A DNA stretch of 64,000 nucleotides from Nemertoderma westbladi (Eukaryota > Animalia > Xenacoelomorpha). The DNA is taken from contig JAUCBJ010000602.1 of the NCBI GenBank assembly GCA_032718475.1, forward strand, positions 11,707-75,706. Direction: 5' to 3'. The position numbers and the translations under genes were made by a program. The notes under the pieces are model-generated. The model saw only the letters and a program-made list of their open reading frames with translations, did not search any database and was not told the DNA's origin. Shown here piece after piece: positions 1 through 42,571 of the stretch (its first letter is position 1; the number at the start of each line of letters is the position of its first letter).

Positions 1-1255
1 AACGGGTACATAAAGAACTCGTTTTGATTAAGTTTAGCAGCGCCACCGAACGGGTACATAAAGAAGTCGTTTTGATTAAGTTTAGCAGCGCCACCGAACG
101 GGTACATAACGAACTCGTGTTGTTTAGGTTTAGCAGCGCCACCAAGCGGGTACATAACGAACTCGTTTTGTTTAAGTTTAGCAGCGCCACCGAACGGGTA
201 CATAAAGAACTCGTTTTGTTTAAGTTTAGCAGCGCCACCGAGCGGGTACATAAAGAACTCGTTTTGTTTAAGTTTAGCAGCGCCACCGAACGGGTACATA
301 AAGAACTCATTTTGTTTAAGTTTAGCAGCGCCACCGAAGGGGTACATAACGAACTCGTGTTGTTTAGGTTTAGCAGCGCCACCGAACGGGTACATAACGA
401 ACTCGTTTTGTTTAAGTTTAGCAGCGCCACCGAACGGGTACATAAAAAACTCGTTTTGTTTAGGTTTAGCAGCGCCACCGAACGGGTACATAACAAACTC
501 GTTTTGTTTAGGTTTAGCAGCGCCACCGAACGGGTACATAAAGAACTCGTTTTGTTTAGGTTTAGCAGCGCCACCGAACGGGTATATAAAGAACTCGTTT
601 TGTTTAAGTTTAGCAGCGCCACCGAACGGGTACATAAAGAACTCGTTTTGATTAAGTTTAGCAGCGCCACCGAACGGGTACATAAAGAACTCGTTTTGAT
701 TAAGTTTAGCAGCGCCACCGAACGGGTACATAACGAACTCGTGTTGTTTAGGTTTAGCAGCGCCACCGAACGGGTACATAACGAACTCGTTTTGTTTAGG
801 TTTAGCAGCGCCACCGAACGGGTACATAACAAACTCGTTTTGTTTAGGTTTAGCAGCGCCACCGAACGGGTACATAACGAACTCGTTTTGTTTAGGTTTA
901 GCAGCGCCACCGAACGGGTACATAACAAACTCGTTTTGTTTAGGTTTAGCAGCGCCACCGAACGGGTACATAACGAACTCGTGTTGTTTAGGTTTAGCAG
1001 CGCCACCGAACGAGTACATAACGAACTCGTTTTGTTTAGGTTTAGCAGCGCCACCGAACGGGTACATAACAAACTCGTTTTGTTTAGGTTTAGCAGCGCC
1101 ACCGAACGGGTACATAACAAACTCGTTTTGTTTAGGTTTAGCAGCGCCACCGAACGGGTACATAACGAACTCGTTTTGTTTAGGTTTAGCAGCGCAACCG
1201 AGCGGGTACATAACGAACTCGTTTTGTTTAGGTTTAGCAGCGCAACCGAGCGGGT
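1..1255 (+). repeat. 48-bp minisatellite (~26 units in window, continues past the left edge); unit = Dvl 3' splice site plus the first ~24 nt of the exon
   Basis: Unit GTACATAACGAACTCGTTTTGTTTAG|GTTTAGCAGCGCCACCGAACGG; the last unit runs directly into the Dvl exon at 1232. Confidence 0.95.
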
Positions 1256-1380
1256 GCAGCAGTCGCGGTTTCGCAGTAAGATGAGGAAGAGACGCCGTCG
1301 TCCACCTCCCAGACTCCCAACCCGCCAGCTGGTAGGTCCCAGTGGGGCTATGAGTGTCAACTCATACTCATCTATAACCG
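1232..1380 (+). CDS. dvl: Dishevelled exon: Ser-rich/basic region upstream of PDZ (FSSATERVQQSRFRSKMRKRRRRPPP...YSSIT)
   Basis: Acceptor ttttgtttAG (1230-1231) and donor GTAAGC at 1381. Resembles the Dvl 'SSSTEQ...HKRRRRK...SFSSITD' segment. The phase-1 join G|AT gives the Asp of the next exon. Confidence 0.85.
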
Positions 1381-1977: not shown

Positions 1978-2995
1978 TGTTATCTGTTATATGTTCCAGG
2001 ATGTCATTAAACATTTTTATATCCGTCATAGATTCAAGTATGTCATTGATGGTTATCTGTTATAGATTCCAGTATATCATTGATCATGGTTCTCTGTTAT
2101 AGATTCCAGTATGTCATTGATGGTTATCTGATATAGATTCCAGTATGTCATTGAACATGGTTATCTGTAATAGATTCCAGTATGTCATTGAATATGGTTA
2201 TCTGTAATAGATTCCAGTATGTCATTGAACATGGTTATCTGTTATAGATTCCAGTATGTCATTGAACATGGTTCTTTGTTATAGATTCCAGTATATCATT
2301 GAACATGGTTATCTGTTATAGATTCCAGTATGTCATTGAACATGGTTCTCTGTTATAGATTCCAGTATGTCATTGATTGTTCTCTGTTATAGATTCTAGT
2401 ATGTCATTGAACATGGTTATCTGTTATAGATTCTAGTATATCATTGAACATGGTTATCTGTTATCGATTCCAGTATGTTATTGAACATGGTTCTCTGTTA
2501 TAGATTCCAGTATATAATTGAACATGGTTATCTGTTATAGATTCCAGTATGTCATTGAACATGGTTATCTGTTATAGATTCCAGTATGTCATTGAACATG
2601 GTTATCTGTTATAGATTCCAGTATATTATTGAACATGGTTCTCTGTTATAGATTCCAGTATATCATTGAACATGGTTATCTGTTATAGATTCCAGTATGT
2701 CATTGAACATGGTTATCTGTTATAGATTCCAGTATGTCATTGAACATGGTTATCTGTTATAGATTCCAGTATGTCATTGAACATGGTTATCTGTTATAGA
2801 TTCCAGTATGTCATTGAACATGGTTCTCTGTTATAGATTCCAGTATGTCATTGATTGTTCTCTGTTATAGATTCTAGTATGTCATTGTACATGGTTATCT
2901 GTTATAGATTCTAGTATATCATTGAACATGGTTATCTGTTATAGATTCCAGTATATTATTGAACATGGTTCTCTGTTATAGATTCCAGTATGTCG
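1978..2995 (+). repeat. 37-bp minisatellite (~26 units); unit = Dvl 3' splice site plus the start of PDZ exon 1
   Basis: Unit GTTATCTGTTATAG|ATTCCAGTATGTCATTGAACATG; real exon start ATTCCAGTATGTCGCTTAACATC at 2982; degenerate copies at the 5' edge. Confidence 0.95.
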
Positions 2996-3114
2996 CTTAA
3001 CATCGTCAATGTGACACTGAATATGGAGAACGTGAATTTTCTCGGTATCAGCATTGTCGGCCAGACAAATATTGGTGGAGACGGCGGAATTTATGTTGGA
3101 TCTATTATGAAAGG
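2982..3114 (+). CDS. dvl: Dishevelled exon: PDZ N-terminal half ([45 protein letters not shown])
   Basis: Hand translation matches the Dvl PDZ 'MSLNI.TVTLNME...FLGISIVGQ...DGGIY.GSIMKG'. AG at 2980-2981, donor GTAAGT at 3115, phase 2. Confidence 0.95.
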
Positions 3115-4108: not shown

Positions 4109-4317
4109 CGGCGCCGTTGCTAACGACGGTCGTATCGACCCTGGTGACGTCATACTCCAAGTGAACGACGTCACCTTCGACAATCTGACCAATGACGAGG
4201 CGGTCCATGTACTCAGAGAAGTCGCGTCTAAACCCGGCCCCGTGCGCCTCCTAGTGGCCAAGTGTTGGAACTCTACACCAGGAACTAATTCTAGTCGCTA
4301 CCTAAATATTGCTAAGT
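4109..4317 (+). CDS. dvl: Dishevelled PDZ C-terminal half, alternative exon a ([20 protein letters not shown]...[10 protein letters not shown]...IAK)
   Basis: tttAG at 4107-4108 and donor GTGAGT at 4318; 209 nt, phase 2 in and phase 1 out; clear Dvl '[20 protein letters not shown]...VAKCW' motif. Confidence 0.9.
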
Positions 4318-4871
4318 GTGAGTGGTGTTGCTATGGTTACCAAGTCGGTTGCCATGGTACACAAGTCGACGCAGGCATGGGAAGTCGCTGCTTTATACTA
4401 ACAACAATTTTGTTTTTTAGCTTTAATGAATGGTTTTAATAAAATTTATTAACATTAAACTAGCATTTTTTAACTAGCAACATTTAACAGTACTAAATTA
4501 CTTATATTTTTTAATATTTGCTTTATTAATTTTATTAATTTATAATGAAAATATTTTTTCTTATCTCTTTGCTTCCGCTCGACCTTCTGATGTTGGTTTG
4601 TATAATTTATTATATTTATCGCATTTTATCTCATCCAAAAACACCTGTTTCATACGTGTTTCCTTTTCATTGGCTGATTCCTACGTGCCGCATGGTTCAT
4701 ACATTACATACTGTATAATATATTAATTGATGTTTATTGTGGCAATTACATTATCATACTGCTGTTTGCGTTCGCTTCGTTATTCTGGTGGTGTATGTTC
4801 CCCCCCCCCCCCCCATCCCCTACCACACACTGTATTACCTCAACCCTCCCAATCTATATATCAACCCACAG

Positions 4872-5083
4872 TGGTGCCGTGGCTGCTGATGGACGTATAG
4901 AACCCGGCGATATGATCCTACAAGTCAATGACGTCAGCTTAGAGAATCTATCCAATGACGAAGCAGTTCGTGTTCTAAGGGACGTTGTGAATAAACCTAC
5001 CCCGGGCCCTGTGCGCCTCCTAGTGGTTAAATGCTGGAACCCCAACCCTCGATTAGGTTACCTATCACTGGATAGAAATCATT
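4872..5083 (+). CDS. dvl: Dishevelled PDZ C-terminal half, alternative exon b ([20 protein letters not shown]...[20 protein letters not shown])
   Basis: cacAG at 4870-4871 and donor GTTAGT at 5084; 212 nt, same phases as exon a; paralogous to 4109-4317. Confidence 0.9.
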
Positions 5084-10615: not shown

Positions 10616-10768
10616 GTGAGCCCATCCGACCAATTGACCCATCCACTTGGATTGACCAATCACGAAGCAGCAACGACTACCGGGATTACAGGAATTCTGC
10701 CATCAGCCCATCAAGAAGTTCCGTTTCCCATAGCAGCAGTGTAAATAGTAGCGTTCCAGAATCCGAGC
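10616..10768 (+). CDS. dvl: Dishevelled exon after PDZ (CEPIRPIDPSTWIDQSR...SSVPESE)
   Basis: cacAG at 10614-10615 and donor GTTAGT at 10769; Dvl 'EP.RPIDP..W' and 'SS.PESER' motifs; 153 nt, phase 1/1. Confidence 0.92.
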
Positions 10769-10903: not shown

Positions 10904-11035
10904 GTTACGAACAAGATCGGCTAACTATTAACACTGACATTGCAACTGTTGTGAAACACTTACAACGAGATGATATCGGTTTGGACATCAGAGACCGTCA
11001 GTGGCTCAAGATTACTATCCACGACGCCTTTATAG
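10904..11035 (+). CDS. dvl: Dishevelled exon: DEP domain start (RYEQDRLTINTDIATVVKHLQRDDIGLDIRDRQWLKITIHDAFI)
   Basis: ttttAG at 10902-10903 and donor GTTCGT at 11036; matches DEP 'GLEIRDRMWLKITI.NAFIG' including the conserved Lys. Confidence 0.93.
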
Positions 11036-12638
11036 GTTCGTGTCAGCTGATTGTCACCCAACATTGTTATTAGGCCTGTTACCGGTACTCGCGTTATAGG
11101 TAGATCAGTAGATAGCCTGTTCCTGTTACCGGTACTCGCGTTATAGGTAGATCAGTAGATAACCTGCTACCGGTACTCGCGTTATAGGTAGATCAGTAGA
11201 TAACCTGTTCCTGTTACCGGTACTCGCGTTATAGGTAGATCAGTAGATAACCTGTTCCTGTTACCGGTACTCGCGTTATAGGTAGATCAGTAGATAACCT
11301 GTTCCTGTTACCGGTACTCGCGTTATAGGTAGATCAGTAGATAACCTGTTCCTGTTACCGGTACTCGCGTTATAGGTATATCAGTATATAACCTGTTCCT
11401 GTTACGGGTACTCGCGTTATAGGTAGATCAGTAAATAACCTGTTCCTGTTACCGGTACTCGCGTTATACAGTTATAGGTAGATCAGTAGATAAACTGTTC
11501 CTGTTACCGGTACTCGCGTTATAGGTAGATCAGTAGATAATCTGTTACCGGTACTCGCGTTATACAGTTATAGGTAGATCAGTAGATAAACTGTTCCTGT
11601 TACCGGTACTCGCGTTATAGGTAGATCAGTAAACAACCTGTTCCTGTTACCGGTACTCGCGTTATACAGTTATAGGTAGATCAGTAGATAACCTGTTCCT
11701 GTTACCGGTACTCGCGTTATAGGTAGATCAGTAGATAACCTGTTCCTGTTACCGGTACTCGCGTTATAGGTAGATCAGTAGATAATCTGTTCCTGTTACC
11801 GGTACTCGCGTTATATGTAGATCAGTATATAACCTGTTCCTGTTACCGGTACTCGCGTTATATGTAGATCATTATATAACCTGTTCCTGTTACCGGTACT
11901 CGCGTTATATGTAGATCAGTATATAACCTGTTCCTGTTACCGGTACTCGCGTTATATGTAGATCAGTAGATAACCTGTTCCTGTTACCGGTACTCGCGTT
12001 ATAGGTATATCAGTATATAACCTGTTCCTGTTACGGGTACTCGCGTTATAGGTAGATCAGTATATAACCTGTTCCTGTTACCGGTACTCGCGTTATATGT
12101 AGATCAGTAGATAACCTGTTCCTGTTACCGGTACTCGCGTTATAGGTATATCAGTAGATAACCTGTTCCTGTTACCGGTACTCGCGTTATAGGTATATCA
12201 GTATATAACCTGTTCCTGTTACCGGTACTCGCGTTATATGTAGATCAGTAGATAACCTGTTCCTGTTACCGGTACTCGCGTTATAGGTAGATCAGTAGAT
12301 AACCTGTTCCTGTTACCGGTACTCGCGTTATAGGTAGATCAGTAGATAAACTGTTCCTGCTACCGGTACTCGCGTTATAGGTAGATCAGTAGATAACCTG
12401 TTCCTGTTACCGGTACTCGCGTTATATGTAGATCAGTAGATAAACTGTTCCTGTTACCGGTACTCGCGTTATACAGTTATAGGTAGATCAGTAGATAAAC
12501 TGTTCCTGCTACCGGTACTCGCGTTATAGGTAGATCAGTAGATAACCTGTTCCTGTTACCGGTACTCGCGTTATAGGTAGATCAGTAGATAACCTGTTCC
12601 TGTTACCGGTACTCGCGTTATAGGTAGATCAGTAGATA

Positions 12639-14471
12639 CTACTACTACTAGGATCTGCATTGCAGCTGCATTTTTAAGAATGCTGTGCCGGCTTGTCAAC
12701 AAAATTGCACCGCCACAACTCCCTATCACCCATGACATTTGCTAGATCATCCGCATCTTTAAGGGCAGTGTCCTTTAAGATGCGTCTCAAGAAAGTCATG
12801 GGCTGTCCACCATGCTTATTCACTCCATGAGGCTGCCAAAGTACAAGATTATGCACTGGCTGGTCCTCACGGCGAAAGCAATGTCCTGCAAAGCGGAGGC
12901 GATTTTGTTCTAGTGTCAAGCTTGGGGGAACCAAAGAGACACCTCCAATGTTATATAGTGTCTGGTTGGAGATGTGTGCATTGTACTTGACACAATGTAC
13001 CCGGCGTAGCATTCTTGTGAATGTGCCATCCAGAGATTTGGTGTCCTCAGCAGTTAGAGCCCAGCATGGACTCCCGTAGAGGAGTACTGGAACTACTGCT
13101 GCTCTAAATAATCGGACCTTAAGTTTCCGATTAATTCTAGGTGACTTCCAAATCCTGGAAAGCCTATTCAAGGCTGCCCATGCCTTTCCCTTACGTATTC
13201 GAAGGTCCTCACCTGACTTCCGGATCCATGATCCCAGGTAACAGAAGTCGTCCACATGCTCAAGCATACCATCCTTTGAGCTTATGCTCATCCGATCAGA
13301 GACTTGCTGAGGACTTTCAAAGTTAACTGTCAGAATTTTGGTCTTTCTGGAGTTAATAAAAAGACCAACACTAGAAGCAGCATGTTCTAATGAGCTGAGG
13401 AGCCGCTGGGCTCCCTCTAATGATTCTGAGAGTACTCCTAAGTCATCAGCAAAGTCTAGATCAGTTAGGTACTTGGCAGGATTTCCTCGACTTCTGGAGC
13501 CAGTAGGTGGAGTTATCATCACCCCATCATCATTATAATGATCTAAGGACATGCGTAGAACATAGTCAACCACAATAATGAACAAGAATGGTGCAAGTGT
13601 GTCTCCTTGGAGGACGCCCCATAACACTTCAAATGGTTCTGTGTCACCGTCAACAGTAGACACAAATGTTGTCGAACCATCGTATACTGATCTGATTGCT
13701 GCAACAATTTCATCAGGAATCCCATATAATGAAAGTATGCTGAACATACGTGAGCGAGAGACTGAATCAAAGGCCTTGAAGAAGTCAACAAAGATAACAG
13801 CCAGATGCCTGTCTTTCTTTTTTGATAACTCTTCAATTATCCTTCTAAGTGCCAAAATGGGCTCCATAGTCCCACGACCTTTACGGAACCCATTCTGATT
13901 TCCACGTAGCAGTCTCTCAATGGGATCCCTGATGCGATTTAATAGAATTCTATTGTATAGTTTTGCAGCAATCGAGATCAATGAGATTCCCCGAAAAGAA
14001 CCATAGAGTGTTAGGTTGCCCTTCTTGGGAACTGGCACCAACTTATTTGTTTTCATTTCTTGTGGGACTCTTGTTGTACGGTACATGTCTACTATGATGG
14101 GATAGATGAGCTTTAAACACTCAGGTATTTTAAAGACCTCAGGGGGAACACCATCTACTCCACTGGCACGATTGGTCTTAATGCTCTTTGCAGCAGCCTT
14201 CACTTCTGCAAAGGAGATATCGCCAATGGGAATATCTGGGAGTACAGACTCAGACACTTTTACTTCTATAAAGTTATCAGGCAATACCCTGTCATTATTG
14301 AGGAGCTTTTCAAAGTGGGCTTTCCAACCATTGAGGCGATCGGCTGGTGATTCAGCCTTAACCTTGGTGGTTGGTTGGCTTTTCCGCCCAGTCAGCAGAT
14401 TGATCGATTTCCATGCCTGGGATGATTGCCTGCTGTCGTCAGCATCATTGATGGCATCAACCTGTTGGTTT
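12639..14471 (-). mobile_element. 5'-truncated non-LTR retrotransposon (RTE-like LINE)
   Basis: RT ORF; (TAG)n 3' tail (ctactactacta at 12639-12650); short 3' UTR; TSD AGTAGATA at 12631-12638 and 14472-14479. Confidence 0.9.
12674..14284 (-). CDS. Reverse transcriptase of RTE-like LINE (endonuclease domain missing by 5' truncation)
   Basis: Motifs PKKG..FRGISLIS, QNGFRKGR, DFFKAFDSV, GVLQGDTLAPFLF, DLDFADD, FCYLGS, RLRFAGH; 536 codons without a stop. Confidence 0.92.
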   Translation of the reverse strand: MPDNFIEVKVSESVLPDIPIGDISFAEVKAAAKSIKTNRASGVDGVPPEVFKIPECLKLIYPIIVDMYRTTRVPQEMKTNKLVPVPKKGNLTLYGSFRGISLISIAAKLYNRILLNRIRDPIERLLRGNQNGFRKGRGTMEPILALRRIIEELSKKKDRHLAVIFVDFFKAFDSVSRSRMFSILSLYGIPDEIVAAIRSVYDGSTTFVSTVDGDTEPFEVLWGVLQGDTLAPFLFIIVVDYVLRMSLDHYNDDGVMITPPTGSRSRGNPAKYLTDLDFADDLGVLSESLEGAQRLLSSLEHAASSVGLFINSRKTKILTVNFESPQQVSDRMSISSKDGMLEHVDDFCYLGSWIRKSGEDLRIRKGKAWAALNRLSRIWKSPRINRKLKVRLFRAAVVPVLLYGSPCWALTAEDTKSLDGTFTRMLRRVHCVKYNAHISNQTLYNIGGVSLVPPSLTLEQNRLRFAGHCFRREDQPVHNLVLWQPHGVNKHGGQPMTFLRRILKDTALKDADDLANVMGDRELWRCNFVDKPAQHS

Positions 14472-17400
14472 AGTAGATAACCTGTTCCTGTTACCGGTAC
14501 TCGCGTTATAGGTATATCAGTATATAACCTGTTCCTGTTACCGGTACTCGCGTTATATGTAGATCAGTAGATAACCTGTTCCTGTTACCGGTACTCGCGT
14601 TATAGGTAGATCAGTAGATAACCTGTTCCTGTTACCGGTACTCGCGTTATAGGTAGATCAGTAGATAAACTGTTCCTGCTACCGGTACTCGCGTTATAGG
14701 TAGATCAGTAGATAACCTGTTCCTGTTACCGGTACTCGCGTTATAGGTAGATCAGTAGATAAACTGTTCCTGTTACCGGTACTCGCGTTATAGGTAGATC
14801 AGTAGATAACCTGTTCCTGTTACCGGTACTCGCGTTATAGGTAGATCAGTAGATAAACTGTTCCTGTTACCGGTACTCGCGTTATATGTAGATCAGTAGA
14901 TAACCTGTTCCTGTTACCGGTACTCGCGTTATAGGTAGATCAGTAGATAACCTGTTCCTGTTACCGGTACTCGCGTTATATGTAGATCAGTAGATAACCT
15001 GTTCCTGTTACCGGTACTCGCGTTATAGGTATATCAGTATATAACCTGTTCCTGTTACGGGTACTCGCGTTATAGGTAGATCAGTAGATAACCTGTTCCT
15101 GTTACCGGTACTCGCGTTATATGTAGATCAGTAGATAACCTGTTCCTGTTACCGGTACTCGCGTTATAGGTATATCAGTAGATAACCTGTTCCTGTTGTT
15201 CCTGTTACCGGTACTCGCGTTATAGGTAGATCAGTAGATAAACTGTTCCTGCTACCGGTACTCGCGTTATAGGTAGATCAGTAGATAACCTGTTCCTGTT
15301 ACCGGTACTCGCGTTATAGGTAGATCAGTAGATAACCTGTTCCTGTTACCGGTACTCGCGTTATACAGTTATAGGTAGATCAGTAGATAAACTGTTCCTG
15401 CTACCGGTACTCGCGTTATATGTAGATCAGTAGATAACCTGTTCCTGTTACCGGTACTCGCGTTATAGGTATATCAGTATATAACCTGTTCCTGTTACGG
15501 GTACTCGCGTTATAGGTAGATCAGTAGATAACCTGTTCCTGTTACCGGTACTCGCGTTATAGGTAGATCAGTAGATAACCTGTTCCTGTTACCGGTACTC
15601 GCGTTATAGGTAGATCAGTAGATAACCTGTTCCTGTTACCGGTACTCGCGTTATAGGTATATCAGTATATAACCTGTTCCTGTTACCGGTACTCGCGTTA
15701 TATGTAGATCAGTAGATAACCTGTTCCTGTTACCGGTACTCGCGTTATAGGTAGATCAGTAGATAACCTGTTCCTGTTACCGGTACTCGCGTTATAGGTA
15801 GATCAGTAGATAAACTGTTCCTGCTACCGGTACTCGCGTTATAGGTAGATCAGTAGATAACCTGTTCCTGTTACCGGTACTCGCGTTATAGGTAGATCAG
15901 TAGATAAACTGTTCCTGTTACCGGTACTCGCGTTATAGGTAGATCAGTAGATAACCTGTTCCTGTTACCGGTACTCGCGTTATAGGTAGATCAGTAGATA
16001 AACTGTTCCTGTTACCGGTACTCGCGTTATATGTAGATCAGTAGATAACCTGTTCCTGTTACCGGTACTCGCGTTATAGGTAGATCAGTAGATAACCTGT
16101 TCCTGTTACCGGTACTCGCGTTATATGTAGATCAGTAGATAACCTGTTCCTGTTACCGGTACTCGCGTTATAGGTATATCAGTATATAACCTGTTCCTGT
16201 TACGGGTACTCGCGTTATAGGTAGATCAGTAGATAACCTGTTCCTGTTACCGGTACTCGCGTTATATGTAGATCAGTAGATAACCTGTTCCTGTTACCGG
16301 TACTCGCGTTATAGGTATATCAGTAGATAACCTGTTCCTGTTGTTCCTGTTACCGGTACTCGCGTTATAGGTAGATCAGTAGATAAACTGTTCCTGCTAC
16401 CGGTACTCGCGTTATAGGTAGATCAGTAGATAACCTGTTCCTGTTACCGGTACTCGCGTTATAGGTAGATCAGTAGATAACCTGTTCCTGTTACCGGTAC
16501 TCGCGTTATACAGTTATAGGTAGATCAGTAGATAAACTGTTCCTGCTACCGGTACTCGCGTTATAGGTAGATCAGTAGATAACCTGTTCCTTTTACCGGT
16601 ACTCGCGTTATAGGTAGATTAGTAGATAACCTGTTCCTGTTACCGGTACTCGCGTTATAGGTAGATCAGTAGATAACCTGTTCCTGTTACCGGTACTCGC
16701 GTTATAGGTAGATCAGTAGATAAACTGTTCCTGTTACCGGTACTCGCGTTCTACAGTTATAGGTAGATCAGTAGATAAACTGTTCCTGCTACCGGTACTC
16801 GCGTTATAGGTAGATCAGTAGATAACCTGTTCCTTTTACCGGTACTCGCGTTATAGGTAGATCAGTATATAACCTGTTCCTGCTACCGGTACTCGCGTTA
16901 TAGGTAGATCAGTAGATAAACTGTTCCTGTTACCTGTGCTCGCGTTATAGGTAGATCAGTAGATAAACTGTTCCTGTTACCGGTACTCGCGTTATAGGTA
17001 GATCAGTAGATAACCTGTTACCGGTACTCGCGTTATAGGTAGATCAGTATATAACCTGTTCCTGCTACCGGTACTCGCGTTATAGGTAGATCAGTAGATA
17101 AACTGTTCCTGTTACCTGTGCTCGCGTTATAGGTAGATCAGTAGATAAACTGTTCCTGTTACCGGTACTCGCGTTATAGGTAGATCAGTAGATAACCTGT
17201 TACCGGTACTCGCGTTATAGGTAGATCAGTAGATAAACTGTTCCTGTTACCGGTACTCGCGTTATAGGTAGATCCGTAGATAAACTGTTCCTGTTACCGG
17301 TACTCGCGTTATAGGTAGATCAGTAGATAAACTGTTCCTGTTACCTGTACTCGCGTTATAGGTAGATCAGTAGATAGACTGTTCCTGTTACCGGTACTCG

Positions 17401-18014
17401 CGTTATAGGTAGATCCGTAGATAAACTGTTCCTGTTACCGGTACTCGCGTTATAGGTAGATCAGTAGATAGACTGTTCCTGTTACCGGTACTCGCGTTAT
17501 AGGTAGATCCGTAGATAAACTGTTCCTGTTACCGGTACTCGCGTTATAGGTAGATCAGTAGATAGACTGTTCCTGTTACCGGTACTCGCGTTATAGGTAG
17601 ATCCGTAGATAAACTGTTCCTGTTACCGGTACTCGCGTTATAGGTAGATCCGTAGATAAACTGTTCCTGTTACCGGTACTCGCGTTATAGGTAGATCAGT
17701 AGATAGACTGTTCCTGTTACCGGTACTCGCGTTATAGGTAGATCAGTAGATAGACTGTTCCTGTTACCGGTACTCGCGTTATAGGTAGATCAGTAGATAA
17801 ACTGTTCCTGTTACCGGTACTCGCGTTATAGGTAGATCCGTAGATAAACTGTTCCTGTTACCGGTACTCGCGTTATAGGTAGATCAGTAGATAGACTGTT
17901 CCTGTTACCGGCACTCTGAATTTAAAACGCCTCACAATAAATATTACATTATCAATCTCCATTGATACTATCAGAGTGACATAAGTGAAACAAATATTAT
18001 TTATTTATTATCAG

Positions 18015-18179
18015 GGCACGACCTTGTCGATTGGTTGTACGAGCATGTGGATGGGTTCAACGATCGCAGAGACGCAAGGAAATACGCGGCCAACTTATTG
18101 AAATCCGGCCATATTCGGCACACAGTAAACAAACACACATTCAGTGAACAGTGCTATTACGTACTGTCCGACGTTGCAG
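18015..18179 (+). CDS. dvl: Dishevelled exon: DEP domain remainder ([55 protein letters not shown])
   Basis: atcAG at 18013-18014 and donor GTACGT at 18180; matches Dvl '[43 protein letters not shown]'. Confidence 0.95.
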
Positions 18180-21152
18180 GTACGTTGCGGTGCTATTACG
18201 TACTGTCCGACGTTGCAGGTACGTTGCGGTGCTATTACGTACTGTCCGACGTTGCAGGTACGTTACAGTGCTATTACGTACTGTCCGACGTTGCAGGCAG
18301 GTTCAGTCTACAGTGCTATTACGTACTGTCCGACGTTGCAGGTACGTTACAGTGCTATTACGTACTGTCCGACGTTGCAGGTACGTTACAGTGCTATTAC
18401 GTACTGTCCGACGTTGCAGGTACGTTACAGTGCTATTGCGTACTGTCCGACGTTGCAGGTACGTTACAGTGCTATTACGTACTGTCCGACGTTACAGGTA
18501 CGTTACAGTGCTATTACGTACTGTCCGACGTTACAGGTACGTTACAGTGCTATTACGTAATACGTACTGTCCGACGTTACAGGTACGTTACTGTGCTATT
18601 ACGTACTGTCCGACGTTATAGGTACGTTACAGTGCTATTACGTACTGTCCGACGTTACAGGTACGTTACAGTGCTATTACGTACTGTCCGACGTTACAGG
18701 TACGTTACAGTGCTATTACGTACTGTCCGACGTTACAGGTACGTTACAGTGCTATTACGTACTGTCCGACGTTACAGATACGTTACAGTGCTATTACGTA
18801 CTGTCCGACGTTACAGGTACGTTACAGTGCTATTACGTACTGTCCGACGTTACAGGTACGTTACAGTGCTATTACGTACTGTCCGACGTTACAGGTACGT
18901 TACAGTGCTATTACGTACTGTCCGACGTTACAGGTATGTTACAGTGCTATTACGTACTGTCCGACGTTACAGGTACGTTACAGTGCTATTACGTACTGTC
19001 CGACGTTACAGGTACGTTACAGTGCTATTACGTACTGTCCGACGTTACAGGTACGTTACAGTGCTATTACGTACTGTCCGACGTTACAGGTACGTTACAG
19101 TGCTATTACGTACTGTCCGACGTTACAGGTACGTTACAGTGCTATTACGTACTGTCCGACGTTACAGGTACGTTACAGTGCTATTACGTACTGTCCGACG
19201 TTACAGGTACGTTACAGTGCTATTACGTACTGTCCGACGTTGCAGGTACGTTACGTCTACAGTGCTATTACGTACTGTCCGACGTTACAGGTACGTTACA
19301 GTGCTATTACGTACTGTCCGACGTTACAGGTACGTTACAGTGCTACTACGTACTGTCCGACGTTACAGGTACGTTACAGTGCTATTACGTACTGTCCGAC
19401 GTTACAGGTACGTTACAGTGCTATTACGTACTGTCCGACGTTGCAGGTACGTTACGTCTACAGTGCTATTACGTACTGTCCGACGTTACAGGTACGTGAC
19501 AGTGCTATTACGTACTGTCCGACGTTACAGGTACGTTACAGTGCTATTACGTACTGTCCGACGTTGCAGGTACGTTACGTCTACAGTGCTATTACGTACT
19601 GTCCGACGTTACAGGTACGTTACAGTGCTATTACGTACTGTCCGACGTTGCAGGTACGTTACAGTGCTATTACGTACTGTCCGACGTTACAGGTACGTTA
19701 CAGTGCTATTACGTACTGTCCGACATTACAGGTACGTTACAGTGCTAGTACGTACTGTCGGACGTTGCAGGTACGTTACGTCTACAGTGCTATTACGTAC
19801 TGTCCGACGTTACAGGTACGTTACAGTGCTATTACGTACTGTCCGACGTTACAGGTACGTTACAGTGCTATTACGTACTGTCCGACGTTGCAGGTACGTT
19901 ACAGTGCTATTACGTACTGTCCGACGTTACAGGTACGTTACAGTGCTATTACGTACTGTCCGACGTTGCAGGTACGTTACGTCTACAGTGCTATTACGTA
20001 CTGTCCGACGTTACAGGTACGTTACAGTGCTATTACGTACTGTCCGACGTTACAGGTACGTTACAGTGCTATTACGTACTGTCCGACGTTGCAGGTACGT
20101 TACGTCTACAGTGCTATTACGTACTGTCCGACGTTACAGGTACGTTGCAGTGCTATTACGTGCTGTCCGACGTTATAGGTACGTTACAGTGCTATTACGT
20201 ACTGTCCGACGTTACAGGTACGTTACAGTGCTATTACGTACTGTCCGACGTTACAGGTACGTTACAGTGCTATTACGTACTGTCCGACGTTACAGGTACG
20301 TTACAGTGCTATTACGTACTGTCCGACGTTGCAGGTACGTTACGTCTACAGTGCTATTACGTACTGTTCGACGTTACAGGTACGTTACAGTGCTATTACG
20401 TACTGTCCGACGTTACAGGTACGTTACAGTGCTATTACGTACTGTCCGACGTTACAGGTACGTTACAGTGCTATTACGTACTGTCCGACGTTACAGGTAC
20501 GTTACAGTGCTATTACGTACTGTCCGACGTTACAGGTACGTTACAGTGCTATTACGTACTGTCCGACGTTGCAGGTACGTTACGTCTACAGTGCTATTAC
20601 GTACTGTCCGACGATACAGGTACGTTACAGTGCTATTACGTACTGTCCGACGTTGCAGGCAGGTTACGTCTACAGTGCTATCACGTACTGTCCGACGTAC
20701 TGTCCGACGTTACAGGTACGTTACAGTGCTATTACGTACTGTCCGACGTTACAGGTACGTTACAGTGCTATTACGTACTGTCCTACGTTACAGGTACGTT
20801 ACAGTGCTATTACGTACTGTCCGACGTTGCAGGTACGTTACGTCTACAGTGCTATTACGTACTGTCCGACGTTGCAGGTACGTTACGTACTGTCCGACGT
20901 TGCAGGCAGGTTACGTCTACAGTGCTATTACGTACTGTCCGACGTTACAGGTACGTTACAGTGCTATTACGTTCTGTCCGACGTTACAGGTACGTTACAG
21001 TGCTATTACGTATTCTCCGACGTTGCAGGTACGTTACAGTGCTATTACGTACCGTCTGACGTTACAGGTACGTTACAGTGCTATTACGTACTGTCCGACG
21101 TTACAGGTACGTTACAGTGCTATTACGTACTGTCCGACGTTACAGGTACGTT
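18149..21152 (+). repeat. 39-bp minisatellite (~75 units); unit = last 31 nt of the DEP exon plus the 5' splice site
   Basis: Unit CAGTGCTATTACGTACTGTCCGACGTT(G/A)CAG|GTACGTTA; the first unit is the exon end itself; some 44-bp variants. Confidence 0.95.
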
Positions 21153-21347
21153 ATGTCTTAGGTGGAACTAGTTTGATTGTTTATGGATTGGATCAGTGGG
21201 TTTACTGTTTTGGTCGGTTGGATTACTCTTTGAGTCGTGGGGTTACTGCTTGGCTCTGTGTGGGTTTACTATTTTGGAAGGCTATAACGTTTTAATTACA
21301 AAATATCTATCAAAATAATCTCAATCATTCTCAATAAACTCGTTTAG

Positions 21348-21455
21348 GTCATATGGGGGATCTCTCATTGGCCGGTGGTATGGAGCAATCGGGCGATCAT
21401 ATGGACAACCTGCCTCAACTTCCTCCACAGTACGGCTGGGCACCAAATTATGCAA
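21348..21455 (+). CDS. dvl: Dishevelled exon after DEP (GHMGDLSLAGGMEQSGDHMDNLPQLPPQYGWAPNYA)
   Basis: tttAG at 21346-21347 and donor GTAAGT at 21456; 108 nt, phase 1/1; loosely like Dvl 'DQDTLAPLP...PW'. Confidence 0.8.
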
Positions 21456-21553: not shown

Positions 21554-21730
21554 CGGCCCATTACTACCAACCCCATTCTGCCGGATACTCCAGCTACGCA
21601 GTTGACTATGGCGATATCGACAGCTGTTCCACCAATACTTACAACTCTGTACCACAAGAGCAGTATGGTGGTACACGGGAAAGGGACACAAAGGGCACAG
21701 GCAGAAGTCACCACTCTGTAGATAGTGCTG
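21554..21730 (+). CDS. dvl: Dishevelled C-terminal region exon (TAHYYQPHSAGY...GRSHHSVDSA)
   Basis: tacAG at 21552-21553 and donor GTTAGT at 21731; 177 nt, open in the continuing frame. Confidence 0.78.
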
Positions 21731-24700
21731 GTTAGTAATCAACTCTAGTAGACAGAAGTCACCGCTCTGTAGATAGTGCTGGTTAGTAATCAACTCTAGT
21801 AGACAGAAGTCACCACTCTGTAGATAGTGCTGGTTAGTAATCAACTCTAGTAGACAGAAGTCACCACTCTGTAGATAGTGCTGGTTAGTAATCAACTCTA
21901 GTAGACAGAAGTCACCACTCTGTAGATAGTGCTGGTTAGTAATCAACTCTAGTAGACAGAAGTCACCACTCTGTAGATAGTGCTGGTTAGTAATCAACTC
22001 TAGTAAACAGAAGTCACCACTCTGTAGATAGTGCTGGTTAGTAATCAACTCTAGTAGACAGAAGTCACCACTCTGTAGATAGTGCTGGTTAGTAATCAAC
22101 TCTAGTAGACAGAAGTCACCACTCTGTAGATAGTGCTGGTTAGTAATCAACTCTAGTAGACAGAAGTCACCACTCTGTAGATAGTGCTGGTTAGTAATCA
22201 ACTCTAGTAGACAGAAGTCACCACTCTGTAGATAGTGCTGGTTAGTAATCAACTCTAGTAGACATAAGTCACCACTCTGTAGATAGTGCTGGTTAGTAAT
22301 CAACTCTAGTAGACAGAAGTCACCACTCTGTAGATAGTGCTGGTTAGTAATCAACTCTAGTAGACAGAAGTCACCGCTCTGTAGATAGTGCTGGTTAGTA
22401 ATCAACTCTAGTAGACAGAAGTCACCACTCTGTAGATAGTGCTGGTTAGTAATCAACTCTAGTAGACAGAAGTCACCGCTCTGTAGATAGTGCTGGTTAG
22501 TAATCAACTCTAGTAGACAGAAGTCACCACTCTGTAGATAGTTCTGGTTAGTAATCAACTCTAGTAGACAGAAGTCACCACTCTGTAGATAGTGCTGGTT
22601 AGTAATCAACTCTAGTAGACAGAAGTCACCACTCTGTAGATAGTTCTGGTTAGTAATCAACTCTAGTAGACAGAAGTCACCACTCTGTAGATAGTGCTGG
22701 TTAGTAATCAACTCTAGTAGACAGAAGTCACCACTCTGTAGATAGTGCTGGTTAGTAATCAACTCTAGTAGACAGAAGTCACCACTCTGTAGATAGTTCT
22801 GGTTAGTAATCAACTCTAGTAGACAGAAGTCACCACTCTGTAGATAGTGCTGGTTAGTAATCAACTCTAGTAGACAGAAGTCACCACTCTGTAGATAGTG
22901 CTGGTTAGTAATCAACTCTAGTAGACAGAAGTCACCACTCTGTAGATAGTGCTGGTTAGTAATCAACTCTAGTAGACAGAAGTCACCACTCTGTAGATAG
23001 TGCTGGTTAGTAATCCACTCTAGTAGACAGAAGTCACCACTCTGTAGATAGTGCTGGTTAGTAATCAACTCTAGTAGACAGAAGTCACCACTCTGTAGAT
23101 AGTGCTGGTTAGTAATCAACTCTAGTAGACAGAAGTCACCACTCTGTAGATAGTGCTGGTTAGTAATCAACTCTAGTAGACAGAAGTCACCACTCTGTAG
23201 ATAGTGCTGGTTAGTAATCAACTCTAGTAGACAGAAGTCACCGCTCTGTAGATAGTGCTGGTTAGTAATCAACTCTAGTAGACAGAAGTCACCGCTCTGT
23301 AGATAGTGCTGGTTAGTAATCAACTCTAGTAGACAGAAGTCACCGCTCTGTAGATAGTGCTGGTTAGTAATCAACTCTATTAGACAGAAGTCACCACTCT
23401 GTAGATAGTGCTGGTTAGTAATCAACTCTAGTAGACAGAAGTCACCACTCTGTAGATAGTGCTGGTTAGTAATCAACTCTAGTAGACAGAAGTCACCACT
23501 CTGTAGATAGTGCTGGTTAGTAATCAACTCTAGTAGACAGAAGTCACCACTCTGTAGATAGTGCTGGTTAGTAATCAACTCTAGTAGACAGAAGTCACCG
23601 CTCTGTAGATAGTGCTGGTTAGTAATCAACTCTAGTAGACAGAAGTCACCGCTCTGTAGATAGTGCTGGTTAGTAATCAACTCTATTAGACAGAAGTCAC
23701 CACTCTGTAGATAGTGCTGGTTAGTAATCAACTCTAGTAGACAGAAGTCACCACTCTGTAGATAGTGCTGGTTAGTAATCAACTCTAGTAGACAGAAGTC
23801 ACCACTCTGTAGATAGTGCTGGTTAGTAATCAACTCTAGTAGACAGAAGTCACCACTCTGTAGATAGTGCTGGTTAGTAATCAACTCTAGTAGACAGAAG
23901 TCACCACTCTGTAGATAGTGCTGGTTAGTAATCAACTCTAGTAGACAGAAGTCACCACTCTGTAGATAGTGCTGGTTAGTAATCAACTCTAGTAGACAGA
24001 AGTCACCACTCTGTAGATAGTGCTGGTTAGTAATCAACTCTAGTAGACAGAAGTCACCACTCTGTAGATAGTGCTGGTTAGTAATCAACTCTAGTAGACA
24101 GAAGTCACCACTCTGTAGATAGTGCTGGTTAGTAATCAACTCTAGTAGACAGAAGTCACCACTCTGTAGATAGTGCTGGTTAGTAATCAACTCTAGTAGA
24201 CAGAAGTCACCACTCTGTAGATAGTGCTGGTTAGTAATCAACTCTAGTAGACAGAAGTCACCACTCTGTAGATAGTGCTGGTTAGTAATCAACTCTAGTA
24301 GACAGAAGTCACCACTCTGTAGATAGTGCTGGTTAGTAATCAACTCTAGTAGACAGAAGTCACCACTCTGTAGATAGTGCTGGTTAGTAATCAACTCTAG
24401 TAGACAGAAGTCACCGCTCTGTAGATAGTGCTGGTTAGTAATCAACTCTAGTAGACAGAAGTCACCGCTCTGTAGATAGTGCTGGTTAGTAATCAACTCT
24501 AGTAGACAGAAGTCACCACTCTGTAGATAGTGCTGGTTAGTAATCAACTCTAGTAGACAGAAGTCACCGCTCTGTAGATAGTGCTGGTTAGTAATCAACT
24601 CTAGTAGACAGAAGTCACCGCTCTGTAGATAGTGCTGGTTAGTAATCAACTCTAGTAGACAGAAGTCACCACTCTGTAGATAGTGCTGGTTAGTAATCAA

Positions 24701-27700
24701 CTCTAGTAGACAGAAGTCACCACTCTGTAGATAGTGCTGGTTAGTAATCAACTCTAGTAGACAGAAGTCACCGCTCTGTAGATAGTGCTGGTTAGTAATC
24801 AACTCTAGTAGACAGAAGTCACCACTCTGTAGATAGTGCTGGTTAGTAATCAACTCTAGTAGACAGAAGTCACCGCTCTGTAGATAGTGCTGGTTAGTAA
24901 TCAACTCTAGTAGACAGAAGTCACCACTCTGTAGATAGTGCTGGTTAGTAATCAACTCTAGTAGACAGAAGTCACCACTCTGTAGATAGTGCTGGTTAGT
25001 AATCAACTCTAGTAGACAGAAGTCACCACTCTGTAGATAGTGCTGGTTAGTAATCAACTCTAGTAGACAGAAGTCACCACTCTGTAGATAGTGCTGGTTA
25101 GTAATCAACTCTAGTAGACAGAAGTCACCACTCTGTAGATAGTGCTGGTTAGTAATCAACTCTAGTAGACAGAAGTCACCACTCTGTAGATAGTGCTGGT
25201 TAGTAATCAACTCTAGTAGACAGAAGTCACCACTCTGTAGATAGTGCTGGTTAGTAATCAACTCTAGTAGACAGAAGTCACCACTCTGTAGATAGTGCTG
25301 GTTAGTAATCAACTCTAGTAGACAGAAGTCACCACTCTGTAGATAGTGCTGGTTAGTAATCAACTCTAGTAGACAGAAGTCACCACTCTGTAGATAGTGC
25401 TGGTTAGTAATCAACTCTAGTAGACAGAAGTCACCACTCTGTAGATAGTGCTGGTTAGTAATCAACTCTAGTAGACAGAAGTCACCACTCTGTAGATAGT
25501 GCTGGTTAGTAATCAACTCTAGTAGACAGAAGTCACCACTCTGTAGATAGTGCTGGTTAGTAATCAACTCTAGTAGACAGAAGTCACCACTCTGTAGATA
25601 GTGCTGGTTAGTAATCAACTCTAGTAGACAGAAGTCACCACTCTGTAGATAGTGCTGGTTAGTAATCAACTCTAGTAGACAGAAGTCACCAGCTCTGTAG
25701 ATAGTGCTGGTTAGTAATCAACTCTAGTAGACAGAAGTCACCACTCTGTAGATAGTGCTGGTTAGTAATCAACTCTAGTAGACAGAAGTCACCACTCTGT
25801 AGATAGTGCTGGTTAGTAATCAACTCTAGTAGACAGAAGTCACCACTCTGTAGATAGTGCTGGTTAGTAATCAACTCTAGTAGACAGAAGTCACCACTCT
25901 GTAGATAGTGCTGGTTAGTAATCAACTCTAGTAGACAGAAGTCACCACTCTGTAGATAGTGCTGGTTAGTAATCAACTCTAGTAGACAGAAGTCACCACT
26001 CTGTAGATAGTGCTGGTTAGTAATCAACTCTAGTAGACAGAAGTCACCACTCTGTAGATAGTGCTGGTTAGTAATCAACTCTAGTAGACAGAAGTCACCA
26101 CTCTGTAGATAGTGCTGGTTAGTAATCAACTCTAGTAGACAGAAGTCACCACTCTGTAGATAGTGCTGGTTAGTAATCAACTCTAGTAGACAGAAGTCAC
26201 CACTCTGTAGATAGTGCTGGTTAGTAATCAACTCTAGTAGACAGAAGTCACCACTCTGTAGATAGTGCTGGTTAGTAATCAACTCTAGTAGACAGAAGTC
26301 ACCACTCTGTAGATAGTGCTGGTTAGTAATCAACTCTAGTAGACAGAAGTCACCACTCTGTAGATAGTGCTGGTTAGTAATCAACTCTAGTAGACAGAAG
26401 TCACCACTCTGTAGATAGTGCTGGTTAGTAATCAACTCTAGTAGACAGAAGTCACCACTCTGTAGATAGTGCTGGTTAGTAATCAACTCTAGTAGACAGA
26501 AGTCACCACTCTGTAGATAGTGCTGGTTAGTAATCAACTCTAGTAGACAGAAGTCACCACTCTGTAGATAGTGCTGGTTAGTAATCAACTCTAGTAGACA
26601 GAAGTCACCACTCTGTAGATAGTGCTGGTTAGTAATCAACTCTAGTAGACAGAAGTCACCACTCTGTAGATAGTGCTGGTTAGTAATCAACTCTAGTAGA
26701 CAGAAGTCACCACTCTGTAGATAGTGCTGGTTAGTAATCAACTCTAGTAGACAGAAGTCACCACTCTGTAGATAGTGCTGGTTAGTAATCAACTCTAGTA
26801 GACAGAAGTCACCACTCTGTAGATAGTGCTGGTTAGTAATCAACTCTAGTAGACAGAAGTCACCACTCTGTAGATAGTGCTGGTTAGTAATCAACTCTAG
26901 TAGACAGAAGTCACCACTCTGTAGATAGTGCTGGTTAGTAATCAACTCTAGTAGACAGAAGTCACCACTCTGTAGATAGTGCTGGTTAGTAATCAACTCT
27001 AGTAGACAGAAGTCACCACTCTGTAGATAGTGCTGGTTAGTAATCAACTCTAGTAGACAGAAGTCACCACTCTGTAGATAGTGCTGGTTAGTAATCAACT
27101 CTAGTAGACAGAAGTCACCACTCTGTAGATAGTGCTGGTTAGTAATCAACTCTAGTAGACAGAAGTCACCACTCTGTAGATAGTGCTGGTTAGTAATCAA
27201 CTCTAGTAGACAGAAGTCACCACTCTGTAGATAGTGCTGGTTAGTAATCAACTCTAGTAGACAGAAGTCACCACTCTGTAGATAGTGCTGGTTAGTAATC
27301 AACTCTAGTAGACAGAAGTCACCACTCTGTAGATAGTGCTGGTTAGTAATCAACTCTAGTAGACAGAAGTCACCACTCTGTAGATAGTGCTGGTTAGTAA
27401 TCAACTCTAGTAGACAGAAGTCACCACTCTGTAGATAGTGCTGGTTAGTAATCAACTCTAGTAGACAGAAGTCACCACTCTGTAGATAGTGCTGGTTAGT
27501 AATCAACTCTAGTAGACAGAAGTCACCACTCTGTAGATAGTGCTGGTTAGTAATCAACTCTAGTAGACAGAAGTCACCACTCTGTAGATAGTGCTGGTTA
27601 GTAATCAACTCTAGTAGACAGAAGTCACCACTCTGTAGATAGTGCTGGTTAGTAATCAACTCTAGTAGACAGAAGTCACCACTCTGTAGATAGTGCTGGT

Positions 27701-30700: not shown

Positions 30701-31688
30701 AGTGCTGGTTAGTAATCAACTCTAGTAGACAGAAGTCACCACTCTGTAGATAGTGCTGGTTAGTAATCAACTCTAGTAGACAGAAGTCACCACTCTGTAG
30801 ATAGTGCTGGTTAGTAATCAACTCTAGTAGACAGAAGTCACCACTCTGTAGATAGTGCTGGTTAGTAATCAACTCTAGTAGACAGAAGTCACCACTCTGT
30901 AGATAGTGCTGGTTAGTAATCAACTCTAGTAGACAGAAGTCACCACTCTGTAGATAGTGCTGGTTAGTAATCAACTCTATTAGACAGAAGTCCCCACTCT
31001 GTAGATAGTTCTGGTTAGTAATCAACTCTAGTAGACAGAAGTCACCACTCTGTAGATAGTGCTGGTTAGTAATCAACTCTAGTAGACAGAAGTCACCACT
31101 CTGTAGATAGTGCTGGTTAGTAATCAACTCTAGTAGACAGAAGTCACCACTCTGTAGATAGTGCTGGTTAGTAATCAACTCTAGTAGACAGAAGTCACCA
31201 CTCTGTAGATAGTGCTGGTTAGTAATCAACTCTAGTAGACAGAAGTCACCACTCTGTAGATAGTGCTGGTTAGTAATCAACTCTATTAGACAGAAGTCCC
31301 CACTCTGTAGATAGTTCTGGTTAGTAATCAACTCTAGTAGACAGAAGTCACCACTCTGTAGATAGTGCTGGTTAGTAATCAACTCTAGTAGACAGAAGTC
31401 ACCACTCTGTAGATAGTGCTGGTTAGTAATCAACTCTAGTAGACAGAAGTCACCACTCTGTAGATAGTGCTGGTTAGTAATCAACTCTATTAGACAGAAG
31501 TCACCACTCTGTAGATAGTTCTGGTTAGTAATCAACTCTAGTAGACAGAAGTCACCACTCTGTAGATAGTGCTGGTTAGTAATCAACTCTAGTAGACAGA
31601 AGTCACCACTCTGTAGATAGTGCTGGTTAGTAATCAACTCTAGTAGACAGAAGTCACCGCTCTGTAGATAGTGCTGGTTAGTAATCAA
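21700..31688 (+). repeat. 51-bp minisatellite (~195 units, ~10 kb); unit = last 31 nt of the exon plus the 5' splice site and 20 nt of intron
   Basis: Unit GACAGAAGTCACCACTCTGTAGATAGTGCTG|GTTAGTAATCAACTCTAGTA; very homogeneous; fills nearly the whole intron. Confidence 0.97.
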
Positions 31689-31780: not shown

Positions 31781-32029
31781 GGAGTAGCGGCGGTTCCAAC
31801 CACTCTGGGAGAGGTCCATCCTCCTCCCGACGCACTCACTCCCTTCCGAGGGGAGCAACCGCAGCTCCTGGTCCAGCAGTAGGGTGCCCGTCGTCCGTGA
31901 GCAGCAGTGGAATCGAGTCGCTAAGGGGGGCCTCTAGTCAGGGGATGGTGACCGGGTGCCCTCCTGGGAGTCCAGTAGTGGCGGGAAGTTTGAATCGGAG
32001 CGGCGCTGGCGGGTTGACACAGCCATCAT
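31781..32029 (+). CDS. dvl: Dishevelled C-terminal exon (GSSGGSNHSGRGPSSSRR...GGLTQPS)
   Basis: tacAG at 31779-31780; phase-1 join gives 'GSSGGSNHS', like Dvl 'EGSRSSGSNRS'. It ends either at donor GTTAGT (32030) or reads on to TAG at 32032-32034. Confidence 0.75.
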
Positions 32030-32110: not shown

Positions 32111-32124
32111 CGGAAATCTTCTGA
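32111..32124 (+). CDS. dvl: Putative terminal Dvl coding exon (S-E-I-F-stop)
   Basis: Strong acceptor ttttatttcAG at 32109-32110; joined to 32029 it gives ...QPSSEIF*, weakly like the Dvl terminus NP.EFFVD.M. Alternatively this is the acceptor of a 3'-UTR intron from GTAAGT at 32057. Confidence 0.4.
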
Positions 32125-32979
32125 GCTCCTAATTGGCTGGCATCGATTGAGTCCGATGGGATGGTTTTGGTTGGCCAAACTGCCATTGATTTGGTTTTAA
32201 TGATTAACAACAGTAAATAGCTGAGGCTCCGCTGCAGTAGTAGTTTGTGAATAGCCTATATAGACCTAATAGACTATAGAGTAGATAAATTAGTTACAAA
32301 CAAGCAGCTTTTACAATTTATTTGTGCGGTCACATTAGGAATTATATTTACAGCAATAATCGCGTGCGCCATCTAGTGTCTGCGTTAGCAATATTTGGCT
32401 TTGTGTGTCTCTGTCCACTTAACTATAAGCACTTATGTTTTCTTAACTGAGCAAAATGTTGTTTGTCTCGTCTTAACTCATTTATATTTATTTGGCTTAA
32501 AATTAAATTTTTGATACACGTGTACTTATTTTTCCCAGAGTCTTATTCATACAAAGCATCACAAAGAATAATTACCGTTATTATTATTGCGTTAATATCA
32601 CAGACGAATTACGTTTAAGTATAAATTACATTAACTTTGTTTATTTGAACACGATATGAAAATATTTACCTGTTTTTCTTAGTTGTTTTTAAATCAAGAT
32701 AAATCCATCAAGATAAAGTCTATTAATTATTTCATATCTTTTCTTTTAATTCTATTGTTTACTTAAATATTAAATTTAGGTTTAAAGTTAATTTTGTTTG
32801 TTAAATGTTGTTCATCAACTTGTCAAGTACAACTATATATAGTCGTGAAAGGTGTTACTAATCATATTATTATTAGTGCCGCTTATCTGATTTTATATAT
32901 TTTTATTTTGCTTTTTTATTAACTCATTTGAATTCGCGTACATTAGTTTGTGATCATTGTATGTTGCGGTTGTAAGCTA

Positions 32980-42238: not shown

Positions 42239-42571
42239 CTAAAATATAATATATCAGTATTTATTTCGTGTAAAATAAAATATTATGTTCATTACTAAAG
42301 GTAGGGAAAGATAATTCCGGACGTAATTTGTTAAGGACAAAATATTTATGTTCTTGAGAGCGATGATGCAGAAATCAACATACGATTAAAATTATCAGAT
42401 ATTGAGAGAATGCTACAAGCAATTGCATAACTTGATGACTTTAAAATAATGATAATATTACAACAAGTAAATAAAATAATTAGTTAATGAATTATATTAT
42501 ATTGAAAAATTATCGGTATTAAATTTAATAAAAAAAATAAAATTTAAGTATTATAATGTGGCATCATCTAC

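Follow-up and report, generated by a model that had tools for sequence, protein, structure and literature searches.

Two neighbouring exons, designated here A and B, encode the C-terminal half of the PDZ domain in the Dishevelled (Dvl) gene of Nemertoderma westbladi. Dvl is a hub of Wnt signalling, and the pair raises the question of whether the gene makes two Dvl proteins by splicing in one exon at a time or whether one of the copies is a relic, the source of a truncated product, a functionally equivalent duplicate or an error of assembly. The locus was analysed within a stretch of 64,000 nt of contig JAUCBJ010000602.1 (assembly GCA_032718475.1), referred to below as the window. The best explanation overall, to which we assign a probability of approximately 0.72, is an old tandem duplication followed by one-at-a-time splicing, with two full-length proteins for which small differences in PDZ binding are predicted.

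Two exons for the second half of the PDZ domain

The Dvl gene lies on the + strand and encodes a PDZ and then a DEP domain, together with Dvl linker motifs. A 10-exon model with either A or B alone is open to the stop codon at 32123-32125, every junction being GT-AG, and the predicted protein, counted from the first exon inside the window, comprises 495 or 496 amino acids; the DIX-encoding part of the gene lies upstream of the window, outside the model (Table 1). Both exons exceed the curated Pfam cut-off for PDZ, their best PDB matches are Dvl PDZ chains, and the ESM Atlas returned generic PDZ clusters only.

Table 1. Dvl exons and candidate splicing elements in the window (positions counted from its first nucleotide)
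Feature	Coordinates	Strand	Basis
Dvl exon, basic region and Ser-rich stretch N-terminal to PDZ	1232..1380	+	
Shared exon, N-terminal PDZ half: carboxylate loop and betaB strand	2982..3114	+	
Exon A, C-terminal PDZ half and linker	4109..4317	+	
Predicted hairpin over the 5' splice site of A	4316..4372	+	prediction
Possible cryptic acceptor / short terminal exon	4396..4460	+	post hoc lead
AG exclusion zone, 379 nt	4491..4869	+	
Exon B, C-terminal PDZ half and linker	4872..5083	+	
Shared downstream exon, E-P-I-R-P-I-D-P linker	10616..10768	+	
Dvl exon running into DEP domain	10904..11035	+	
DEP domain exon	18015..18179	+	Pfam, gene model
Predicted Dvl exon, 3' of DEP	21348..21455	+	gene model
Predicted Dvl exon	21554..21730	+	gene model
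Predicted penultimate coding exon	31781..32029	+	gene model
Predicted last coding exon, ends S-E-I-F-stop	32111..32125	+	gene model

Exon A is 209 nt long (borders tttag/C ... T/gtgagt, the slash marking the splice site) and exon B 212 nt (cacag/T ... T/gttagt). Both lengths are 2 mod 3, and both exons are entered in phase 2, left in phase 1 and open in the same frame. The preceding exon ends at 3114 with G/gtaagt and the following one starts at 10616 with cag/GT GAG CCC, so that A and B both yield the junction T/GT GAG CCC. Joint inclusion leads to a stop after 8 further codons, inside B, and the skipping of both to an immediate stop. A preliminary description of this DNA had claimed paralogous exons with these borders, lengths and phases, a common downstream junction and a loss of frame with both or neither; all of this was re-derived independently at the same positions. 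Splicing of one exon at a time fits the frame, and the gene therefore likely makes two slightly different proteins. A and B are very probably a functional mutually exclusive pair, for which we infer both the exclusivity and the expression, and the sequence makes it quite likely that both isoforms are produced. In the mechanism that we propose, the tandem duplication gave two intact, frame-incompatible exons for the second PDZ half, and transcripts carrying both or neither would probably be removed by nonsense-mediated decay.

Exactly two copies of the PDZ exon occur in the window; no full duplicate of the exons flanking A and B was found there, these being single apart from border repeats, and a comparison across the window revealed no similarity between the introns around A and those around B. 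An assembly artefact or an uncollapsed haplotype might be suspected in a region that is 58.5% tandem repeat, the more so as Dvl models with doubled blocks exist in public databases (P0284, P0286, P0013 and P0287). Those blocks, however, are identical or nearly identical and span several exons, whereas here one exon is doubled. The nearly saturated synonymous sites (see below), the doubling of one exon only and the unrelated introns show that A and B are an old tandem duplication of a single exon; an assembly duplicate is unlikely, and we rate the chance of an artefact or uncollapsed haplotype as negligible.

A and B are identical at 45 of 66 aligned residues (68%) and at 138 of 198 nt. Within the first 55 codons 42 residues are identical, with pS 0.67, pN 0.125 and pN/pS 0.19 (bootstrap 0.09-0.33); synonymous sites are near saturation, and the protein is conserved. 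Neutral evolution was simulated 5,000 times for each of four divergences; the best protein identity reached was 61% at d=0.5 and 36% at d=1.0, and the observed value was never matched. The earlier view, for which a comparison of dN/dS had been proposed, was that the copies are diverged in DNA, conserved in protein and both under selection; for the pair this is borne out, and for A alone the support is modest, as described below. A 16-nt block is identical in A (4242-4257) and B (5011-5026) despite the near-saturated synonymous sites and is possibly a shared splicing element or a trace of old gene conversion; in a search for a docking site for it, the best duplexes were no better than those of control 20-mers. 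The exon-only tree was uninformative, a clade of A and B not being rejected (p-AU 0.78).

Compared with the common state of 54 distinct Dvl segments, the 55 codons contain 13 core differences, nine in A, V325A and M300V among them, and four in B, which in addition has two 2-residue insertions and keeps every pocket residue. Judged by these changes, B is the copy closer to the Dvl consensus and A the more diverged one. At position 300, 91 of 92 distinct Dvl segments carry Met. Against a profile of the 54 segments, a set picked by likeness to B, A scores 148.8, below their minimum of 160.1. It could accordingly be supposed that A was functional for a long time, was recently silenced and is starting to decay, B alone now being spliced. 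The excess of changes in A, two of them at the nearly invariant M300 and V325, would fit this, as would the lowest profile score of 56 segments, a donor predicted to be buried and an acceptor adjoining a 745-bp satellite. However, A has neither a stop nor a frameshift, its donor GTGAGT is strong, several of its residues, including Ala325, are present in other Dvls (P0001, L014 and L035), and the maintenance of an AG-free zone before B fits continuing regulation. Moreover, the nine changes are milder than neutral ones: 108 of 3,062 stop-free simulations score as well (P ~0.035), the other 938 of 4,000 having met a stop, and a test of the same nine changes confined to invariant columns was not significant (P 0.097). 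An earlier selection test on A (P 0.005) had started from B, which biased it in favour of A, and was replaced. We regard silencing of A as improbable; the values above indicate that A and B were constrained through most of their history and that A has been relaxed or redirected.

Splicing signals around the exon pair

The 379 nt that precede the acceptor of B are devoid of AG; the corresponding zones at the ten other acceptors of the gene measure 20-79 nt. Outside repeats, neither strand has a longer run without AG, the next measuring 189 nt, and 20,000 shuffles of the intron gave at most 285 nt; from the letters of the zone, which is 65% pyrimidine, approximately 9.7 AGs would be expected. 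The motif TACTAA at 4491 sits exactly at its 5' edge and is followed by a T-rich tract interrupted by A, the hexamer occurring 8 times in 26,540 unmasked nt of the window. According to the available portions of two papers, a long AG exclusion zone is the hallmark of a branch point far from its acceptor, placed close to the zone's 5' end; such branch points accompany alternative splicing (Gooding 2006, PMC1431707) and are tied particularly to mutually exclusive exons (Corvelo 2010, PMC2991248). The same portions describe for PTB exon 11 a zone of 380-381 nt, close to the 379 nt found here, and exon 3 of alpha-tropomyosin and the mutually exclusive exons of alpha-actinin likewise have a pyrimidine-rich zone with a branch-like motif at its 5' end. 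It is likely, by rules established in mammals, that the zone and motif before B mark a distant branch point near A4496, with B as the regulated exon; if so, this would be a distant branch point of vertebrate style in an invertebrate.

The predicted branch point at A4496 lies approximately 376 nt upstream of B and 178 nt from the donor of A. Steric exclusion between a donor and a branch point has its limit near 50 nt, and in exon pairs governed by it the branch point lies a few tens of nt from the upstream donor. At 178 nt the Dvl pair differs from these cases and is probably beyond steric exclusion, which makes the frame together with nonsense-mediated decay the likely backstop.

Between the donor of A and the AG-free zone there is a further candidate signal, a cryptic acceptor at 4421, through which A might mainly give a truncated DIX-PDZ protein lacking DEP, with B providing the full-length Dvl. 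A TACTAAC at 4396, the only one on the + strand of the window, precedes a T-rich tract, behind which an AG stands at 4419-4420; the resulting acceptor is textbook-like and lies 103 nt past the donor of A. Joining A to it would leave 11 codons before a stop, and hexamers resembling poly(A) signals follow (AATAAA at 4438 and ATTAAA at 4454). It should be noted, however, that the signal was recognised post hoc, in AT-rich sequence of a kind that often contains such hexamers, and that A retains the ancestral spacing into E-P-I-R-P of the downstream exon, which suggests that A is still joined to that exon. Truncation as the main fate of A is therefore very unlikely in our view, and in what follows A and B are treated as alternative parts of a full-length protein.

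The choice between them may involve RNA structure. The 61 nt around the donor of A are predicted to form a hairpin in which the donor GU is paired (-24.2 kcal/mol, z -3.26, 1 of 200 shuffles); when seven further Dvl donors were folded alike, z-values ranged from -1.70 to +1.66, two satellite donors being left out. The 3' arm of the hairpin (4340-4362) is complementary to the acceptor G and first 21 nt of B (4871-4892), with a duplex energy of -28.5 kcal/mol, and in none of 150 dinucleotide shuffles did the intron pair with B as well. This helix was the best among 11 segment comparisons, the other ten falling within their shuffles. It lies 8 kcal/mol above the minimum-energy fold, its mean pair probability, 0.15 at 37 °C, drops to 0.03 at 15 °C, and the pairing depends on a 21-bp tandem repeat that is nearly palindromic, in a genome rich in border repeats. 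The entire intron between A and B folds no better than its shuffles (z -0.17), and the inverted-repeat list for the window contained nothing convincing. As a tentative proposal, in one state the hairpin would hide the donor of A, and B would be used; in the alternative state the 3' arm would pair with the acceptor of B, and A would be used. That such competing pairing helps to select the exon is, on these predictions, possible but rather unlikely. In control of the Dscam1 type, a docking site pairs with competing selector sequences. The candidate in Dvl likewise consists of one sequence with two alternative partners, each state favouring one exon; unlike docking and selector sequences, the partners would be the splice sites themselves, namely the donor of A and the acceptor of B, and pairing searches found no shared docking site for the exon pair.

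The PDZ pocket, the linker and the tail

For mouse Dvl1, the available portion of Lee et al. 2015 (PMC4577825) gives L262, I264, I266, V318, L321 and V325 as the pocket for the last residue of the Dvl tail and R322 as the residue binding its -2 Asp. Mapped by spacing and by alignment to 1mc7, L262, I264 and I266 are encoded by the shared exon 2982..3114, and V318, L321 and R322 do not differ between A and B, so among the seven published pocket and contact residues only V325 differs, being Ala in A. Of 92 distinct Dvl segments, 87 have Val and three have Ala at this position, and the change is thus rare but tolerated. The preliminary description had inferred different PDZ specificities from two alphaB strings, which it quoted correctly. 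The H/R, E/D and S/N differences within them fall at positions that are variable among Dvls and outside the published pocket list, and the six of seven residues common to A and B argue against a large switch in specificity; what remains of the claim is V325A, which does lie in the pocket. The linkers differ more: in A a basic residue still stands at the customary spacing from E-P-I-R-P, a motif that we take to be an SH3 ligand, and B has two extra residues there. In the proposed mechanism B would be close to the canonical Dvl, and A would be a tuned variant, its site-0 pocket made roomier by V325A and its linker unlike that of B.

The same comparison could be read in another way, namely that both exons are spliced and the two proteins are equivalent, the pair being kept by split expression or by a tuning of Dvl levels through nonsense-mediated decay. 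Most of the differences are conservative, the pocket is shared but for one residue, and the products with both exons or neither stop early, as such tuning would have it; the substitution in the site-0 pocket and the linkers, unequal in length and in the basic residue before E-P, speak against equivalence. This explanation, which we consider a real possibility although clearly short of an even chance, overlaps with the preferred one on the isoforms, the branch point and the RNA pairing and departs from it on binding and Wnt output. On the side of the preferred one, a measurable difference between A and B in ligand binding is a prediction to which we give slightly less than even odds.

With S-E-I-F as its predicted tail, the protein conforms to the class III pattern of PDZ ligands (E/D-X-hydrophobic), which the available part of Lee et al. 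(PMC4577825) states for Dvl tails. According to the same part, the tail of Dvl occupies the PDZ pocket and sets JNK versus canonical output, and the sorting of signals between Wnt branches by Dishevelled is an open question. The fit to class III makes self-binding possible, and a Val or Ala pocket could shift it. In the final step of our mechanism, a difference in binding would shift the open or closed state, which the tail of Dvl itself sets, and through it the Wnt branch, along the lines of the switch suggested earlier; this step is speculative and improbable on present evidence. The complete chain, in which the hairpin picks the PDZ exon, the Val/Ala pocket sets the grip on the tail and splicing pre-sorts Dvl between beta-catenin and JNK/planar-polarity signalling, is a long shot. 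If it were true, splicing, not gene duplication, would pre-sort Dvl between these branches. Whatever the case, two natural Dvl proteins, identical save for half of the PDZ domain and the linker, would offer a ready test of sorting by the pocket. The splicing class is well known, the pair comes from one genome window, and the difference in the pocket is one residue.

Lineage, known systems and the surrounding DNA

Based on a tree of the PDZ-DEP region, the Dvl of the window is sister to Dvl-1 and Dvl-2 of Hofstenia miamia together with one acoel-like protein (support 97/95), in a data set of 42 rows of hand-picked proteins and 12 loci, with short rows dropped, long branches, and no named Xenoturbella, nemertodermatid, ctenophore or sponge rows. 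This placement points to a xenacoelomorph, as N. westbladi is. The C-terminus is shortened to S-E-I-F here, to T-E-F-L in Hofstenia and to A-E-F-L in P0124, the usual ending being F-F-V-D-V-M; possibly the shortened tail is a trait shared by the lineage. Hofstenia Dvl-1 (P0296) and Dvl-2 (P0301) share with the present protein the order of PDZ and DEP, the pocket residues and a class III-type tail, and the pocket residues and the class III-type tail are also the likeness to the mouse Dvl1 PDZ bound to its own tail, as far as the available portion of PMC4577825 describes it. In Hofstenia and in vertebrates Dvl was diversified by whole-gene duplication, whereas here one exon was duplicated; the pair would thus be a case of a core developmental gene diversified at the level of a single exon, in a lineage close to the acoels.

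As regards related species, in which a check for the pair had been proposed, a scan of metagenome Dvl loci found a second copy of the PDZ exon in 0 of 80. These were the 80 best of 226 confirmed loci; they include no close relative, and many are short, redundant or cDNA-like. The sole locus flagged (L056:1-150) has a short, out-of-frame tandem repeat that takes in the corresponding acceptor and the first 15 codons. Among the 80, 50 loci have an acceptor at the corresponding 5' border, and in every one of them a K-P-G/P intron splits the region. Both A and B lack this intron; the duplicated unit is thus probably particular to this lineage. Protein searches gave one match for exon A among 89 candidates, from a nematode, and for exon B a best identity of 75% among the best 120 of 1,993 matches, none from a close relative; the exact protein of A or of B was not among the matches listed. 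Isoform pairs with identical flanks and a different segment numbered 0 in 18 groups, in a database collapsed at 90% identity.

Public Dvls scoring twice (P0013, P0103, P0123 and P0284-P0287) were rejected as parallels, being identical multi-exon repeats, retained-intron models or two fused genes. Identical doubled multi-exon blocks are present in P0284, P0286, P0013 and P0287 (Penaeus, Pangasianodon, Panagrolaimus and Plutella, respectively), and P0285 (Trichuris) consists of two fused genes; these doubled and fused models are probably errors of assembly or annotation.

Homologous mutually exclusive exons such as those of PKM, MAPK8 and LDB3 (Martinez Gomez et al. 2021, PMC8373072, available portion) are likewise adjacent, nearly equal in length and identical in phase, lead to a frameshift when both are included, and are old and conserved in protein; unlike the exons of that catalogue, the Dvl pair is known from the genomic sequence of one species alone. 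A search of the main text and the supplementary table of this human catalogue gave no match for DVL1, DVL2 or DVL3, the controls PKM, MAPK8 and LDB3 being found there. No case of duplicated Dvl exons appeared among the literature matches listed, which comprise titles and the openings of abstracts with most subscription journals outside their scope, and the available portions of PMC7810883, PMC13170675, PMC6451197 and PMC11521371 contain nothing on Dvl exon choice. Within these sources the Dvl pair is apparently unreported, and its kind is well described (PMC8373072).

The introns of the gene carry satellites at 1-1255, 1979-2994, 11075-17916, 18148-21153 and 21702-31688 that are tandem-amplified exon-intron borders. 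A 48-bp unit (16 copies with TAG among 26 similar ones) and a 37-bp unit (25 copies) carry an acceptor and the start of the next exon, the former lying upstream of exon 1232..1380 and repeating its acceptor; 39-bp and 51-bp units (68 and 196 copies) carry an exon end and donor, and the 47-bp satellite unit accounts for 89 donor-like sites. The true Dvl splice sites consequently stand among hundreds of satellite decoys, and satellites that amplify borders are a plausible source of local duplications. Within the 47-bp satellite, a probable 5'-truncated LINE-like element occupies 12639-14471 on the minus strand, with an uninterrupted frame of 598 amino acids (12677-14470), a [YF]ADD motif of reverse-transcriptase type and a short (CTA)n tail.

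Three further regions on the minus strand were noted. At 41806-44340 there are open frames of 590 and 159 amino acids, without a match in a Pfam search, and an internal 18-bp coding repeat of 34.7 copies with units like E-T-S-Y-P-N. The exons at 52530-54473 encode a protein in which a calcium-binding EGF domain precedes a probable transmembrane segment. Finally, a segment of MADD (MAP kinase-activating death domain protein) at 61782-63998 forms one frame of 739 codons that runs off the end of the window; no near relative was matched, and its identity to vertebrate and octopus proteins is 39-42%.
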